From Peribolospora baueri (taxonomy: Eukaryota): DNA of 64,000 bases. The notes beneath the pieces are model-generated. The model was not told the origin of the DNA and searched no databases. It was given only the letters and a program-made list of their open reading frames with translations. Positions 1,382-34,405 of this stretch are shown here, in pieces. The position numbers and the translations under genes are program-made. Every line of letters begins with the position of its first letter. The stretch's first letter is position 1. The stretch covers positions 124,001 to 188,000 of the forward strand of contig JAMDHS010000011.1 in NCBI GenBank assembly GCA_029717555.1, given 5' to 3'.

Positions 1382-3024
1382 ATGACGGCGAAGCCGAGGA
1401 CGACCGCGGCTATCACGCATCTCTACCGTCACCTCCTCCGCGAGGCCAGCTACTTTCCAGACCCTTTCGTCGCCTCTTACATCCGCTCCAAGGCCCGCCG
1501 TCTCTTCCGCTCCTTCCCTCGCCCTCCCGAGCCCGTGTCGTCTAAACCGCCGAGGAGGATCGACCCGGAGGACGTGCTGGAAGATGCGAGAAGAAGGGCC
1601 GAGTGGGAAGAGCGCATGGACGTCAAGCTTTCAAGGGCGTCGACGATGCTGAGGAAACTTCGTGCGGCCAATCGAGGCGAGCAGCTCGCGGTGAAGAGGG
1701 AGCTCGAGGAGGCGTACGCAAGGCGGGGAAGGAGGAGGTGGGAAATTCTCGCTGTCAGTGTTTTGCAAGCTCGTCACCGTCCGCATCTAGGACACGGACG
1801 GCCACCTTAGAGAATGTGGGCTTGAACTCGTATTTCGACCATCTGTCGCTAACGCTCCCTTCCTCCGCCTTCCACATGACGCAGCCAATCCTAGCTCCCA
1901 TGGGCTCGCCCGCTCCTCTTGATCCGACCAACCCGCGCACGCGGCCGCCGTCGCTCTCCCCTCTCTTCTCGTCCCTCGTCACCTCTTCCGCCTCGCACAA
2001 TTCCCGCCCAGCCGCGCGCTCCTCCCTTCAAATGCCTCCCAACCTGCCCGCAAGGGCTGACCCCCGATCAGAGGAGGCCCTGATCTTGGGCCCGCTGGAC
2101 AGGAGACGGGAGGCGAACTTGAGGTGGTGGTGGTTTTCCGCTGAGGCGGGCAAAATCCGCGTCCCGCTTGAGATTGGAGTCAGCGGGTCAGATAACGTGG
2201 AGGAGGGTGAGAAGGGGGATCAGCGCGGTGCAGGGGAGGATAAGGCTGCTGGCGACAGAAGGGAAGAGGGCGAACCCGGTTTGTCTCCTTCCCGACCTGG
2301 ACCTCACCGGACAGGCTGGGAGGGAGCGCGTCTCCTGGACGAGCTGGAGAGAAAGGCGGGCAAGGGAATGGCTCCGCCTCGACGTCCTTGGCGGATCGCG
2401 ATGCAGTGGACGCCGAAAGGGGAGGGAAATATGGACAGGGCGACAACGGAGGCGACAACGGAAGGAGGGAGGGAGAGAGGAGCAGAAACGTTCTGGGACG
2501 GTCTGGTGCGACGACAAGCGTATAGACGCACGCCCGTTCCCCTTCGCCCCATCCAGGACTCGGACCCAGGGCCCTCTTCCTCCTCCTCCTCCGCTTCTTT
2601 CACCCACGTAGACGACTCCAGCTCTCCTCCCGCACTGACAAACGACAAGATCCGTCGGCTATCCGCCCGGTGGTGGAGACGAACGTACGCAAAGCTCCTG
2701 GCCACCGTTCCTGTCGTGGTGTGGGAGGAAGGAGGAGCGCAGCCTGTGGCGCGAGGAACAGGCAACAAGCGCTCTTCGGCTCACAGCAACCCTCCGGCCG
2801 GGCGCGCCACTCCTCCTTCCACCCCCTCCGCAACCTCCGAGATGACAACCACCACCACCCCTGACAGGCCCGTCCCTAAGGGGCGATACAAAATTTCGCT
2901 AAGCGCATTCTCACACACTCGCAAAAACATCCGCCCCGCCCATCCTCGAGTTCAGAGCGCTTGGGGCTTGAGTGCGGAAGACGAGGAGTGGATCCTCCGG
3001 AAGCGGAAGGGGGAGGGAGGGTGA
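1382..3024 (+). CDS. LYR-motif (Complex1_LYR-like) protein with long low-complexity C-terminus
   Basis: N-terminus HLYRHLLREASYFPDP...YIRSKARRLFR matches the LYR motif. One phase-0 intron 1754-1884 (GTCAGT...GCTAAC...CAG) joins it in frame to the 1603..3024 ORF. Confidence 0.75.
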
Positions 3025-3783
3025 TGATAAATCGAAATTGGCCGTGCGAGGAGGAGGAGAAGAAAAGTAGAGGAGCCAAGGCCGGTTTCTTTCTTCATCA
3101 TCGTCGGCGTCGGCGCAAGCGACGCACCTCTCACCTCCGCATCGTGTCCACGGGGTTGACACGTCTCTACGTGCGGATGCATGGCCGGGATGCTGGGGGA
3201 GCGTAAGAGACGCAGCGACGGCGATGACGTCGGGTTGATCCGAGATTCATATTGGACGGCAGGGGGCCGGGGGCCACAGCCTTCCCCAAGACGCGACGAG
3301 GCGGTGGGAAGGAGGAAAAGGTGGGCTGGGATTGCCCCTCGACATATACATATCTGTCTGACCGAGACCGAACGGCGACGTCGAATTTGGGTAGTAGTTT
3401 ACTCTACAAAGCTTGCTGGTGAGGATGGGACGGGAAGAGACGCAGACGAGCGACGAGCGACGGGCGATGAGTGAGAAGCGGACCTGCCTATGCACTTAGG
3501 TATGAGGGGAGATAGATACGTGAGGTAGGCGATGGGCAGGAGATGAAAGAAGACAAGGAGGCCAGGCCAGGCCAAGCTGGTGTAGCCAGGCGCATCGGCA
3601 GAGACAGCGTCCGTGATAAGATGAAAGAAAAAACACGAGGCGAATGAAACAAAGAGTCCATAAGAAAGAAGGTCCGTAAATGGAGAGAGAGAGGAAAATA
3701 TGGAACAAAATGGAATGGACCGGGAAGGGACGAACATGAAATCGTGCCCGCGGAGGGAGGAAGAAAGGAGGAGATTCGCCGCA

Positions 3784-28894: not shown

Positions 28895-31394
28895 GGCGGA
28901 CGGGGGGGACGAGGAGCGTGCCTAGCTCGGCGACGCTCGGCGATGTGAAGATGGGACGGAGGGGAGTGGGATGTGTACTGGGGAGAGTAAGGAACGGTGG
29001 GAGGGGTGGTGGTGGCGAGGAGGGAGTGGTGGTGAGGGTGATGGTGATGGTGATGATGATGGTGGTGGTGGTGGTGGTGGTGATGGCGGTCACGACGGGT
29101 GTCGAGGCCGAGCGAGCGAGGTCAGGTCGCCGTTGCCGTTGCGCGTGCCGACGGAATCAGCTTGGACCGTGTTCCATCAAGGGCGGGTCGGGCGTCGTCG
29201 TGCGTCGGTCGTCTTGTCTTTGTCGGTTGGGCTGGTTGCTCGTTTGTCCGTGTGTCCGTCGTCTGTTTGGCTGATGGCTGCTGTTGGTTGTCTACCTGCC
29301 CTCGCCCTCGCCCGTGCCATCTGCCGTCTGCTTGCTTGTCTATGTGCTTCCTTGCCCGCCTCGCTCGCCTCCTCCTCGCCTTTCCTCCTCTTTCTCCCGC
29401 TTCCTCCGCCCACGCCTAGCCTAGCCCCGATCTCAAGTTTCAGTCTCCCTGCGCCCGGCCGAGCGCCTCCGCCATCTACTGCGGCACCGCTCCGTTCCAT
29501 CCCCTTGCCCGACACGTAGCTACATATAGCTAGCTCCGTCCGACCTGCGCCCGCCCCTGCGCTGTGCACGTGACTGCATGTGACTTTGCATCACCCACGT
29601 CCCCCTTCCATGCTTGGCAGGCCGGCCTGGCTGGCGGCTGGGCGCACACACTACTTGTGCCTCGTCCGGCTCAGTCGAATTACATAATGACCACGCCACG
29701 CCCATGTCCTGTATGCCCTGTATGCCCATGTCTCGCGCCACAGCAATAGCAACACCGATGACTAAGGCTTGGGCTCGGGCTCGATCGGGCTTGCTTGGTG
29801 GGCTTGATCGCTCATCCTCGTTCCCGCCCGGCGCTGCCAGCCCGTCCCGTCCGTTGCCGTCGCCGTCGCCGTCGGACCCGGGACCCGGCCTCGCTCTGCC
29901 TGGCTGGCGGGCTGGCAGGATGAGAGTGAAACGAAATGAGATGGGACAGACCAACGCTTGCATTTCTTCCGCCTTCCCTTCCCTTGCACCAGACGCCGTC
30001 GAATTTAGAATGGGAAAAGTCGACAGACGGCGTCGCTCGCTGCTCGCTCGCCCACCCTCGCTCCCCTTTCGTCCTTGCCAGCGCCGCGTGACCCCAACGC
30101 GCACATCGTCCGCGCCCTCTCCGTCACACACGTGCCGCCCATCGTGCACGTCCCTCCCTTCCTCCTATCCTCTATCCTCTACTCTTCCACATACGTCCTC
30201 TTGTGGTTATGTAAGCCACCTAGCGTGTGGACGCCGCTCGTCGCCGCGACGCGACATTGAGCTGCTCCTTCTCCTTGCGCGGGCAACTCCATGCGGGCCG
30301 AGTGAGCAAGCAAGACACGCCGGCCTGCCTGCTAGCTTGCTTGCTGGCTGGCGGGAGAACGACGGCGGCGCGCGCCGCGCCCCCCCTGGCAGCAGACGGA
30401 TGGACGGACGCGATGCGATCCGACGCGAGACGGTCAGGGTCGCCCTTTCGAGCTCTTCCTACCGGGCAGGCTCAGATGAGATCGCGCCGGATCTATCTAC
30501 GTACGACCTTTTCGCTTTCGCTTTTCCTTAGTCGGTTCGCCAAAGACACGGGCGCGGGGGTCGATCTCGCTTTCGATTTCGCTCCCATCCATCCTTCTAG
30601 AACAGCGTGATATTTGGTTATGCACACCCCGAAGGAGGGTACGTGTACGTCGTAAGCGCGTACCGTACGTACATGGGTAGACAGACGAGAATACCGTCCT
30701 CTTGACGCCGTCTCGGCGCGAAAACGTCTCGGCGAGAGGCCTTCCATCCAGCCACTTCGAACACGAACAGTGCCCATCCCGTCCATCTCGATATGACCCT
30801 CTCCTTCGCCCTGTCACGTCAGCTCGCCAGCCACACCGCACACTCACCGCGGTCGTCGATCGGCCGTCGGCGCATCGATCCGATTGATCTCGACCGGACC
30901 GAAAAAACTCTTTCTCCGACCCCACGCCCTCTCCTGTCACCTCCGCACCTCCGCGGCGCACCCCACCAGCGCCCACCGCCGCGATATGTATGTACATATA
31001 TATACACACGCACACATATGTATATGTATGACGAACACAACCCATTTGCCGCAGCGGCGTCGAACGCCAGCCGTGCGGAATGGGGACGGGACGGTAAGAC
31101 ACCGTCGAGTTATGAGGAGCGCGCTCCTCACGACCTCGCCGTCCCGCAGCTATCTGGCTGGATGGCTTCCGTAGTCCTTGCCTCGTCGACTAACAGTGGT
31201 TTTGAAATAAATAAATTGCTCCGCGTAGGCGGGCGGGCCAACCAGCCGCCCGGCAAGGCAAGGCAAGAGTGGCGGCGGGGCGCAAACATCTTAGTTACAA
31301 GGGTAGAACAAGGTCCGCCCCAAGATGCGTGCATATCCTTTCTACGTCGCTCCCCGCGATCGTCGTTCTAAATCCCCAAGGTATCTATCCATCA

Positions 31395-34300
31395 TCATCG
31401 ATCATCACTCGTTCTGCCGGTGAACCCTCTCTTCGCTTCGGCGTCCAGCTCTGCTTTTCCCGCCCCGTCGCCAGAGCCGAAGACGGGCTTGTCGTCGGGG
31501 AGGACGAACAGCGAGGTATCGTAGTTGCGCTTGTTGAACACGGTGTACTCTCGTCCTGTCCAGCGGCAGAACACCCACGTCGCCGCCGCACGGAAAGCGA
31601 AGGCGACGAAGGACCAGCCCACAGACCCCTGCGCGAAGCGAACGAACGAGCGAAGCAGTGGACGAGTCAGGGCTGTGTGCCGCAAATCGCGTCCTTCGGC
31701 GTGACAGGCCGCCGGCGCTGGTCAAATCGTATCCCGGGTTAGAGAACGGGCGACTCACCAGAGGGGCGCAAAGGAAGGCGCCGAGGACGGAGTAGTCTGA
31801 CACGTAAAGATCCTATAAAGGCAAAAAGAAAACATGGGGCGATCAGTATCCATCCGCTTCGCATCCGACTTTCACCGCGCACTGACATTGGGCAGAGTGA
31901 TGAGCTTGCCCCCTTCATAAGCGCTGCCGAGGTAGATCGTGCCAAAGATGAAGACGGTGAAGAAGCCACCCATTGCGCCTACGAAGACCTGGTGAGCAAA
32001 GATGGTGGTTCGAGCGTGCGAGCGGTGGGAAGAGATGTGAGCCGACGGTGCGTGTCAAAGGTAGACGGAACGAGTAGCACCGTGTAGGAGACTCACGTCG
32101 AATCCGTTCAGGAACCAGAAGTGGTCGACCAAACCCAGCAGAGGGGCCGGCAACGCAGCTGTGCGATGGAGCGATCCGAAATGACATGAGAGAGCGGCTC
32201 TGTACAGTTTCATTTCTTAAACGCGGTCGCTTCACGAAAGACAAACTCACCCGCGGCGCCCAAATCGGCGATCAAGAAAACCTCTAGGATATCGACGTTC
32301 TTGACGGCCAGCACGACGCTAGGCACATTGAGCGCAAGAAGGAGGACGCGACTGACGACGAGCGGCACGCGGTTGAGGAACACGTCGTTCTGAAGCGTCG
32401 AGATCTGAGCGCTCTGCAGCGTGTCGTAGGCGGAGCAACTCAGGGCGCTTGCGAGAACGAGGATGATACCCTGAACCCAGTCGGGTAGGGTTCCCAGGAC
32501 GATGAAGAACGTGTCCGAACCATCCGACTGGCCTTGCACCCAAAGGCCGGACCATTGTGCAAGAGGGCCGGTGACGCCGACGAGAAAGCAGATAGCGAAG
32601 AGAATCGGAGTAGCGATGATCACGCTAACGTAAAGGTCCTTGTTCGAGCGAGACGCGAAGGCGCGCTCTGCATGTGGACGTAGACCCGAGCCGGATGAAT
32701 TAATCAGCCGCGACGCCTCCACGTCAGCCCACGATATCAGCGCATATCCCACTTACGCCAAAAGCCTTGGTTGAACATTTGACTGAAGATGAGCGCAGCG
32801 GGAAGGATGTACCACAGCTGTCCGCCAAGCGAGTGGCCCTTCGTCAGACCCGAGCTTTCAACGAGGTCTGGTTGGATTTTCAGCTTGACGCCGAAAGCAA
32901 CTGTGGCCATGATCTACAGAAATTCAAGCCGATAGATGTATAATCAGAGACCCAGACAGCAAACTCAAGAATGGAATCTAGCTCTGCCTTCTGCTCACAA
33001 TAAAAATCATCACGACTACGCCTTGCACGTTGTCCGTCCACAAACTGGCCTTGAAACCTCCATAGGTGGTGTAGATGGTCGTGGTGATGGCGACGATCAG
33101 AGCTGCGATCGTCGGGTCGACTCCGCCGAGGGAGCTGACCACGTATCCGTACGTATTGAGCTCGGTGATCCTGAGAGGTGAGTAAGATGTGGAGACCGCT
33201 GCTAATGAGATGAAGGAGACGCGGACCAGATATGGAGACTGTCGGGACCAGAACCCACATGAAGCACAGCATAAACCCGCAGAATATAACGGCCGCCAAA
33301 ACGCCAACAGGCCAACCGAACCGCCTACGGATGTACTCGGAGAGGGTGAAGCCGTCTGGACACTTGCGACGGATGGCCGGACCGAGCCATGCAAAGGCCC
33401 AAAGAGGCACGACGGTGGAGAAGCAGTAGGCGCTAAGCCCAAGCAAGCCGGCCGTAGGGATTACGGCCACTTGAGGATATCCGAATAAGAGCGAGGACGA
33501 CATGTCTGTTTAAAGCGTTGGGGCAGAAAAAAGAGAAATGATAAGTTCGATGGAGCCCTACCTTCCCAATGGGGAAGGCGCGGGGGACAACAAAAACGAA
33601 GAGAGAACGCGCCAGGGAGCGCAAAAGGAGAAGTGAGGCCGTCTTCAACGGACACTCGGGAAAGAAACAAAAGGAAAAAAAAAGGCAGCAGCGTTCCCTT
33701 CGCGAGCATTGTCTCGATCAGGTCATTAACGGTGTACATCTCAGCCCGCGCCTCTGTCCGACGTTTTCTTCCAGCCCGAGTCCCCTAAGAGGCGCACAGG
33801 CAGGGTCGAAATGCGTCGGACATGAGGGGACATGTCCTTTCCCTGGCTTCAACTCTGGACTAATCCAAGAGAGATGCAAGCAGAAAGAGCACGCGCGAGC
33901 ACCCGCAGCGGTTGCCTTTCCGTTGTCTTCCCTCTTTTCCCGACCCAATCCATCGACGCCTCTGCCGGAGAGGCGAAGACGGAGCGGACAAGGAAAGAAG
34001 GAAAACCGAACGGAGAAGAACGAGGCGAGAGGGAGGCAGAAGAGATGATGTGCACGTCACCGTCATGGATACCCTATACGAAGATGCGAGCCTGGGCTAT
34101 TGCATTTTGCCAATTGCAGGATGGAAGACGACTGTGGGAGAGGAGGTAGGAAAGAGATACGCGCTCGAAGCGATCCAGTTCAGCGAGAGTGGGAAGGCTG
34201 AAAAAAACAAGAGATGAGATGGACGGTCAGAGGTCCAGGATCAGCTGCTATTCCGCGGGTCCAGCGTTGACGCACCGCTCTGGCTACGAATGCCGCTGAG

Positions 34301-34405
34301 GAAGTCGACCTTGCTCTTGACTCTGTAACCGGCGTACAGCCCTACGAGCATAAAGCCGCAGAGGCTGCAGTACACGAGTGCGTTGGCTTGTTGAACTGTT
34401 AACAT
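31395..34405 (-). CDS. Sodium:solute symporter family transporter (DUR3/DUR31/NCU01977-like), probable thiamine/HMP transporter
   Basis: Spliced reading MLTVQQANALVY...DFLSGIRSQS-AFPLSLNWIAS-NMSSSLLFGYPQ...CPDGFTLSEYIRRRFG...YTTYGGFKASLWTDNVQG...RAFASRSNKDL...SCSAYDTLQSA...FLIADL. Many TM segments. Contains a TPP aptamer in intron 2. Confidence 0.88.
33681..33919 (-). ncRNA. TPP riboswitch aptamer (THI element) in intron 2 of the transporter
   Basis: Minus strand: AAAGGCAACCGCT-GCGGGTG-CTCGCG...[~150-nt P3]...CGCGGG-CTGAGA-TGTA-CACCGT-TAATG-ACCTGATC-GAGACAATGCTC-GCGAAGGGA-ACGCTGCTGCCTTT. Contains GGGTG, the CUGAGA pyrimidine sensor, ACCUGAU, a P5 hairpin and GCGNAGGGA in the correct order, with pairable P2/P3/P4/P5 and flanking AAAGGCA/TGCCTTT. 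Confidence 0.95.

Follow-up and report, generated by a model that had tools for sequence, protein, structure and literature searches.

A TPP riboswitch intron with a probable GC donor in a thiamine transporter gene ortholog of Peribolospora baueri

A transporter gene on the minus strand of Peribolospora baueri contig JAMDHS010000011.1 (GenBank assembly GCA_029717555.1; positions 124,001 to 188,000, a 64,000 nt stretch referred to here as the window) carries a thiamine pyrophosphate (TPP) riboswitch aptamer in its second intron, and the 5' splice site expected for that intron begins with GC rather than GT. The locus raises the question of whether intron 2 is a working GC-AG intron under riboswitch control or a GT-AG intron that has been damaged or misread. 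We consider it probable, from sequence comparison and by analogy with characterized relatives, that intron 2 is the TPP riboswitch-controlled intron already known from this gene family, that its regulated donor (S1) carries a T-to-C change at +2, and that this donor would still be spliced at low TPP and be turned OFF by TPP. Coordinates below are window positions, and a slash in a splice site marks the exon-intron boundary.

The transporter gene and the reading frame across intron 2

The gene runs from 34405 to 31395 on the minus strand and was modelled by hand, with a script check, as 10 exons and 9 introns. Spliced with the GC donor, the model gives a coding sequence of 1608 nt and a protein of 535 aa without internal stops, which aligned at full length with all six orthologs tested (57-68% identity over 522-535 aligned residues). 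When the translation of exon 3 was used as a query, 31 proteins were recovered, every one with PF00474 and with a top identity of 86%; the named matches are Ustilaginomycotina (Pseudozyma flocculosa, Testicularia, Ustilago, Sporisorium, Tilletia and Malassezia), and several of the 31 bear the source name "urea transporter". The exon 2 peptide and the intron position match the Neurospora crassa gene (Suppl. Fig. S8, PMC3597705), and together with PF00474 this comparison makes the gene an ortholog of the NCU01977 (N. crassa)/DUR31 (Candida) thiamine transporter, from an Ustilaginomycotina fungus. NCU01977 belongs to the same transporter family and carries a TPP riboswitch (PMC3597705), Candida DUR31 has been demonstrated to be a thiamine transporter in the available part of one report (PMC5997356), and riboswitch-regulated "urea transporter" genes of the NCU01977/DUR31 kind are among those that the available text of Mukherjee et al. 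(PMC5882874) gives for Basidiomycota. The parts of the gene that bear on the splicing of intron 2 are as follows.

31395..34405, minus strand: coding region of the SSF (PF00474) transporter (spliced model and tblastn map)
34276..34405, minus strand: exon 1, MLTVQQANALVY..IRSQS, ending in phase 1 (orthologs start MLxxSQANALVY)
34198..34275, minus strand: intron 1, 78 nt, G/GTGCGT ... tttttcag, frame-keeping (spliced model)
34165..34197, minus strand: exon 2, a 33-nt micro-exon, phase 1-1, (A)FPLSLNWIAS plus the first base of N (model and ortholog peptides)
33506..34164, minus strand: intron 2, 659 nt, GC-AG, with the TPP riboswitch (spliced model)
34159..34164, minus strand: GCGCGT, GC donor at the conserved S1 position (donors of ortholog loci and N. 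crassa)
34155..34160, minus strand: GTATCT, the nearest GT, 4 nt into the intron, phase 2, no G at +5, frame-shifting (frame check)
34097..34099, minus strand: TAG, the first stop met in frame when intron 2 is kept or splicing starts from a downstream donor (translation)
34055..34079, minus strand: cluster of poor GT sites (GTATAG 34079, GTATCC 34072, GTGACG 34060, GTGCAC 34055), none with G at +5 (donor scan)
33556..33564, minus strand: AAG/GTAGGG, the sole strong GT donor of the intron, 120 nt 3' of the aptamer (score 7, runner-up 5)
33506..33507, minus strand: AG acceptor of intron 2, cag/AC (sequence and ortholog acceptors)
33259..33505, minus strand: exon 3 (..MSSSLLFGYPQVAVIP..), starting AC ATG TCG (N-MSSS), 62-86% identical to relatives

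When every GT and GC site from exon 2 to the stop was considered, only A/GCGCGT, with its G at 34164, had phase 1 and so allowed exon 2 to be joined in frame to exon 3 (..NWIAS / N-MSSS..). The preliminary description of this DNA had claimed as much, and its central point holds: the productive junction requires the GC site, and an in-frame stop lies downstream of that site. Reading through the intron from the ATG at 34405 gives a translation that ends ..AFPLSLNWIASSAYLF..GKMQ at the TAG of 34099-34097. This TAG is in frame under any competing splice path, including use of AAG/GTAGGG, where cleavage before the G at 33561 would define a 56-nt intron to the acceptor cag/AC (33506/33505) and leave the spliced message with the TAG. 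The positions given earlier are all correct on the minus strand, those of the GT sites at 34079, 34072 and 34060 included. As competitors of the GC site, however, the alternative donors proposed earlier are uneven, as the site at 33561 is strong while these three are poor.

One objection to a GC donor is that the true donor is a GT, either GTATCT at 34160 or a GT site followed by a hidden micro-exon. GTATCT is only 4 nt from the GC site, but the frame check placed it in phase 2, as previously stated, and it lacks G at +5. An alternative acceptor cannot rescue the frame of a GT donor, because the exon-3 frame meets a TAA two codons upstream of the acceptor, and in the orthologs NMSSS follows NWIAS with no space for extra residues. 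We regard a GT donor as scarcely credible. A U12-type reading of GTATCT or of GTATCC was rejected separately, as both are in the wrong phase and no branch motif was found at the proper distance; to our knowledge, the Dikarya lack the minor spliceosome.

Intron 2 has GC at +1/+2 and ends in AG at an obligatory intron position, and it resembles GC-AG introns of the major spliceosome also in having G at +5 and T at +6. It differs from them in the remainder of its donor context, CGA/GCGCGT, with an A at -1 and a C at +4, whereas GC donors typically match the consensus closely at their other positions and are generally held to need such a match. In the transporter gene, all eight introns other than intron 2 are GT-AG and 74-130 nt in length, and four of their eight donors match GTRAGT. 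The preliminary description regarded GCGCGT as a variant of a donor common in this genome, GTGCGT, but in the transporter gene alone that donor occurs once among the eight, against three occurrences of GTGAGT. The available text of one survey gives GT-AG as 98.7% of fungal introns and GC-AG as the major non-canonical class, at less than 1% in model organisms (PMC7072748). The intron corresponding to intron 1 is removed constitutively in N. crassa (PMC3597705).

Conservation of the donor position

Twenty-eight orthologous proteins were fetched and compared around exons 1-3. Exons 1 and 2 are both present in eight of them (P0008, P0011, P0012, P0016, P0017, P0025, P0030 and P0033), and all eight read NWIAS (or NWFAS)-N-MSSS, which is the exact product of a junction at 34165^33505. 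The other proteins depart from this arrangement in different ways: 16 begin at or just before MSSS, so that exons 1-2 are absent from the annotation, P0031 has exon 1 followed by a different peptide before MSSS, and in three (P0010, P0028 and P0032) exon 3 follows exon 1 without exon 2 between them (..TQS-D-MSSS). Judging from these sequences, mis-annotation near the riboswitch intron is widespread in the transporter family.

The last group bears on a second alternative, that the productive mRNA skips exon 2 and joins exon 1 to exon 3 in frame (G/AC = D) to give ..RSQS-D-MSSS... A 33 nt exon of phase 1-1 can be skipped with the frame preserved, and the annotations of P0010, P0028 and P0032 are built in this way. 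These three are, however, automatic predictions, and the locus closest to P0028 (L001, see below) has a normal exon 2 and a GT donor. Skipping would also delete FPL(S/T)LNWIAS, a peptide conserved from N. crassa to the Ustilaginomycotina relatives, which we take to lie in the first membrane helix region of the SSF fold. Exon 2 skipping is thus very unlikely to be the productive path.

Metagenome contigs were scanned by alignment with ortholog proteins, and seven loci were confirmed. L001, L002 and L004 are identical over positions 2001-3300 and were counted once, and L007, a distant paralog (41% identity), was excluded, which leaves four distinct orthologous loci: L001, L003, L005 and L006. 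The aptamer 3' core of L006 was missed by the regular expression, and this locus contributes its donor, acceptor and CUGAGA only. These Ustilaginomycotina-like loci share with the P. baueri gene the same exon 2, donor position, acceptor context and aptamer core. In all four, an intron with the TPP core interrupts the codon that follows ..WIAS, leaving the first base of that codon in exon 2, and the acceptor directly precedes (A)C/T ATG TCx (here the slash separates alternative bases), which encodes N or A followed by MSSS. They differ from P. baueri in intron length (254-1418 nt) and in the donor itself, which is GT in every case: A/GTGCGT (L001), A/GTTAGT, G/GTTCGT and A/GTCAGT. In N. crassa the corresponding sequence is ..LNFIAS G/GTGAGT, and S1 is marked at that GT (Suppl. 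Fig. S8, PMC3597705).

Alignment with orthologs, which had been suggested as a check on whether the GC donor is conserved, therefore gave a divided answer, in that the donor position is conserved while the GC is not, all five relatives (the four loci and N. crassa) using GT. On sequence grounds, the intron position is old and conserved and its donor is the regulated donor S1; because GT is found at the same position in all five relatives, the change in P. baueri is a T-to-C at +2. S1 deviates from GTRAGT in all four related loci, compared with the four of eight other donors of the P. baueri gene that match it, and these numbers are too small for a test. This suggests that a weak S1 may be tolerated or even wanted in this lineage.

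The same comparison bears on the possibility that position 34163 reads C through an error of base calling or assembly, or as a rare allele of the strain, in a species that normally has A/GTGCGT and an ordinary GT-AG riboswitch intron. The GT in the four distinct loci and in N. crassa would fit this explanation, as would the GTGCGT of L001, which differs from the P. baueri donor at +2 only. Against it, GC-AG introns, even at less than 1% of introns, are far commoner than substitution errors at any one particular base, and no frameshift or stop elsewhere in the gene points to a poor assembly. We consider an error or a rare allele improbable.

Two further features of the relatives were noted. In L001, which is Malassezia-like, the riboswitch intron (2745-2998) is only 254 nt long, and a TAA separates its weak S1 from a strong second donor, TG/GTAAGA, 13 nt further on; this layout is unlike that of the P. 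baueri gene and corresponds to "Type III" in the available text of Mukherjee et al. (PMC5882874). The inner donor AAG/GTAGGG of P. baueri has no counterpart in the relatives.

The TPP aptamer and its surroundings

Intron 2 contains the following RNA elements.

~33681..33921, minus strand: TPP aptamer with a P3 insertion of ~130 nt (RF00059 match, inverted repeat and minimum free energy fold)
33919-33908 and 33692-33681, minus strand: P1 5' strand and P1 3' strand (alpha'), 12 nt, 10/12 pairs
~33745-33695, minus strand: core, CUGAGA and ACCUGAUC..GCGAAGGGA (RF00059 alignment, high posterior probability)
33920..34012, minus strand: stable 93-nt hairpin directly 5' of aptamer P1 (-49.6 kcal/mol, z -5.5, 0/200 shuffles as stable)
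34096..34107, minus strand: candidate alpha (AAAUGCAAUAGC), which includes the TAG and lies 57 nt after S1 (a weak assignment)

A Rfam search with RF00059 gave no match at the gathering threshold of 54.3 bits. At the E-value threshold, 33770-33678 matched with 32.8 bits (E 1.8e-4), and the orthologous loci likewise fell under the gathering score (39.0 and 33.0 bits). Scores of this size fit long P3 insertions, which the model aligns poorly, and long P3 stems are usual in this riboswitch-bearing gene family (PMC3597705). The ligand-contacting core is present as CUGAGA and ACCUGAUC..AAU..GCG.AGGGA (P4/P5), with posterior probability marked by an asterisk, and core blocks are also found in L001, L003 and L005. 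P1 was found independently of the RF00059 model as inverted repeat I7 (12 nt, 83% complementary), and the minimum free energy fold of 33925-33676 recovered P1, a long branched P3 and P4/P5 (z -2.15). The aptamer of the preliminary description is thus borne out by core motifs and fold, although not by the Rfam gathering score. We conclude that intron 2 holds a TPP riboswitch aptamer, and binding of TPP to it is predicted from sequence and modelled structure.

Folding also predicts that the 93-nt hairpin would in effect bring S1 and the aptamer closer together. Matches of this hairpin and of low-complexity tracts to Rfam microRNA families and long non-coding RNAs (E 0.016-10) were rejected as chance labels. 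Beyond the 3' end of the gene, an imperfect simple repeat rich in TG/TA (catacatat..gtgtgcgtgtgtatatat..) occupies ~30990-31040 of the minus strand.

Two pairings that involve the donor region were observed in the folding analysis. A pyrimidine tract 14-22 nt after S1 (34142-34151) pairs with GGGAAG/GUAGGG (33556-33567) over 10 bp with one bulge (-15.3 kcal/mol). In the model such a pairing would cover the strong inner donor and place S1 close to the acceptor; its energy is no better than that of shuffled sequence. The S1 region CUUCGA/GCGCGU (34170-34159) is complementary at 10 of 12 positions to the P4/P5 3' strand (33709-33698; -9.5 kcal/mol). Masking of S1 by P4/P5 in the manner of NMT1 was considered and rejected for three reasons: the pairing is not significant, it is the same with C or T at +2, and it has the wrong sign.

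Splicing and regulation of intron 2

The closest characterized system is NCU01977 of N. crassa (Li and Breaker 2013, PMC3597705), which is "Type II" in the available text of Mukherjee et al. (2018, PMC5882874). In N. crassa, splicing from S1 in the absence of thiamine leaves an open frame, whereas thiamine leads to splicing from inner donors or to retention of the intron, and the frame then runs into stops (PMC3597705). When TPP is not bound, alpha, a sequence near S1, pairs with the P1 3' strand (alpha') and so promotes use of S1, and mutation of the S1 GU to GA abolished expression (PMC3597705). This helix is the defining feature of the published "long-distance pairing" OFF switch. Of the 18 species in that study, nearly all have an alpha-alpha' helix of at least 11 continuous pairs and 2 lack the helix, and the distance from alpha' to the acceptor is typically <60 nt in the riboswitch family (PMC3597705).

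The P. baueri gene resembles this system in its orthologous host gene, in the position of the intron and in a short exon 2 ending ..IAS in phase 1. The intron is similarly long (659 nt here, ~680 nt in N. crassa) and contains a TPP aptamer with a long P3 as well as in-frame stops. The frame is open from the outermost donor only, as in Type II, and an OFF switch is expected. The two differ in S1 itself (G/GTGAGT in N. crassa, A/GCGCGT here) and in the place of the competing donors, which in N. crassa (S2-S4) lie 5' of the aptamer, whereas the sole strong competitor here lies 3' of it. They also differ in the extent of alpha-alpha' pairing and in the distance from alpha' to the acceptor, as described below. 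A second system, DUR31 of Candida parapsilosis (Donovan et al. 2018, PMC5997356), is similar, as far as its available text goes, in that a transporter of the same family has a riboswitch intron in its coding region and thiamine lowers productive splicing; it differs in having a budding-yeast intron with GU donors, and the likeness is one of family, drawn without a direct protein comparison.

Several results weigh against the reading of intron 2 as a GC-AG intron still spliced under riboswitch control. With GT in all five relatives, the GC could be either an error or a lesion of recent origin. Positions -1, +2 and +4 all weaken the donor, and the near-consensus remainder expected of a U2-type GC donor was not found in CGA/GCGCGT. 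The long-range pairing is also weaker than in most species: no run of at least 11 continuous pairs with the P1 3' strand was found in intron 2 within ~60 nt of S1, and the candidate alpha (34107-34096) forms 10 of 12 pairs with alpha', with two mismatches, at -6.8 kcal/mol, compared with -9.8 kcal/mol for P1. In an ungapped 12-mer helix scan of the S1 region against the aptamer 3' flank, the best helix was matched or beaten by 38.5% of 200 shuffles. Finally, alpha' lies 175 nt from the acceptor (33681 to 33506).

The candidate alpha resembles the P1 5' strand, and its position is similar to that of alpha in N. crassa and L003. No contiguous helix of at least 7 pairs to the P1 3' strand was found in the P. 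baueri intron; the sole 7-bp helix, GGCAAAA/UUUUGUU (-3.0 kcal/mol; here the slash separates the two strands), involves a U-rich tract downstream of that strand. Contiguous helices of 8, 10 and 8 pairs were found in L001, L003 and L005, respectively. The top two helices of the 12-mer scan were 34151-34140/33567-33556 (-15.3 kcal/mol) and 34133-34122/33648-33637 (-14.1 kcal/mol), neither of which surpassed the shuffles. When the donor-proximal 110 nt were compared with the aptamer 3' flank by RNAduplex, a fraction of 0.27-0.34 of shuffles was at least as good for P. baueri, L001 and L003, a result that large loops make uninformative.

The weakness of the donor also speaks for a further alternative, in which the T-to-C change arose recently and abolishes or strongly lowers expression, so that little or no transporter is made from a gene that is otherwise not yet decayed. 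In human genes, +2T>C changes retain some normal transcript in only about 15-18% of cases according to the available text of PMC8375439, and frequent turnover of thiamine transporters in fungi is described in that of PMC5997356. Against such a loss, none of the 10 conserved exons is damaged, and the aptamer has kept its core and P1. Moreover, S1 in the four relatives is also off GTRAGT, and weakness at S1 therefore appears to be tolerated. On balance we judge a knock-down unlikely and favor a GC donor that is still spliced.

If the GC donor is spliced in this way, the following sequence of events is proposed. At low TPP, the major spliceosome would use A/GCGCGT, probably inefficiently, joining ..NWIAS to N-MSSS.. 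and giving the 535-aa transporter. When TPP is bound, P1 would close and use of S1 would drop. With S1 unused, the intron would be kept or would be spliced from the strong inner donor AAG/GTAGGG (33561), and the TAG at 34099 would then stop translation after 66 codons, leaving the gene OFF. The OFF logic in this scheme is carried over from the experiments on N. crassa and Candida, while splicing at the GC site, its efficiency and the choice among competing sites are what we infer for P. baueri. The preliminary description held that TPP diverts splicing to stop-containing RNAs; this agrees with the experiments on the N. crassa ortholog (PMC3597705) as to the OFF logic, and only in part as to the competitor sites. 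For its proposal that the GC site would depend on the ligand-free fold, the alpha-alpha' helix offers 10 of 12 pairs and the best long-range helices do no better than shuffles. Its further proposal, that these isoforms are sensitive to nonsense-mediated decay, is conceivable.

A more elaborate version of the scheme would have the GC donor as an evolved attenuation of S1, with splicing wholly dependent on RNA architecture: the 93-nt hairpin would shorten the intron, the pyrimidine tract would hide the donor at 33561, S1 would adjoin the acceptor, and TPP would release the arrangement. Although we think this has little chance of being correct, it would, if true, describe a riboswitch expression platform that combines a non-canonical donor with a decoy donor placed 3' of the aptamer.

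The host gene, the aptamer, the intron position and the OFF logic have already been published, with Basidiomycota included, and only the GC dinucleotide is new. A literature search on TPP riboswitches and GC-AG introns found no description of a riboswitch-controlled intron with a GC donor; the sole match is, going by its title, a general review on RNA-protein interactions and RNA therapies. Without use of the GC site, the locus would be no more than a known system with a commonplace point mutation or an error. If the site is used, the locus is a natural experiment on the Li-Breaker model, and would show to what extent the productive donor of a riboswitch-controlled intron can be weakened while RNA folding still rescues it. 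Gene predictors that accept GT donors only will mis-annotate this transporter, and many database entries of its relatives already lack exons 1-2 or skip exon 2. Similarly, riboswitch surveys that look for GU...AG around an aptamer would overlook the true expression platform.

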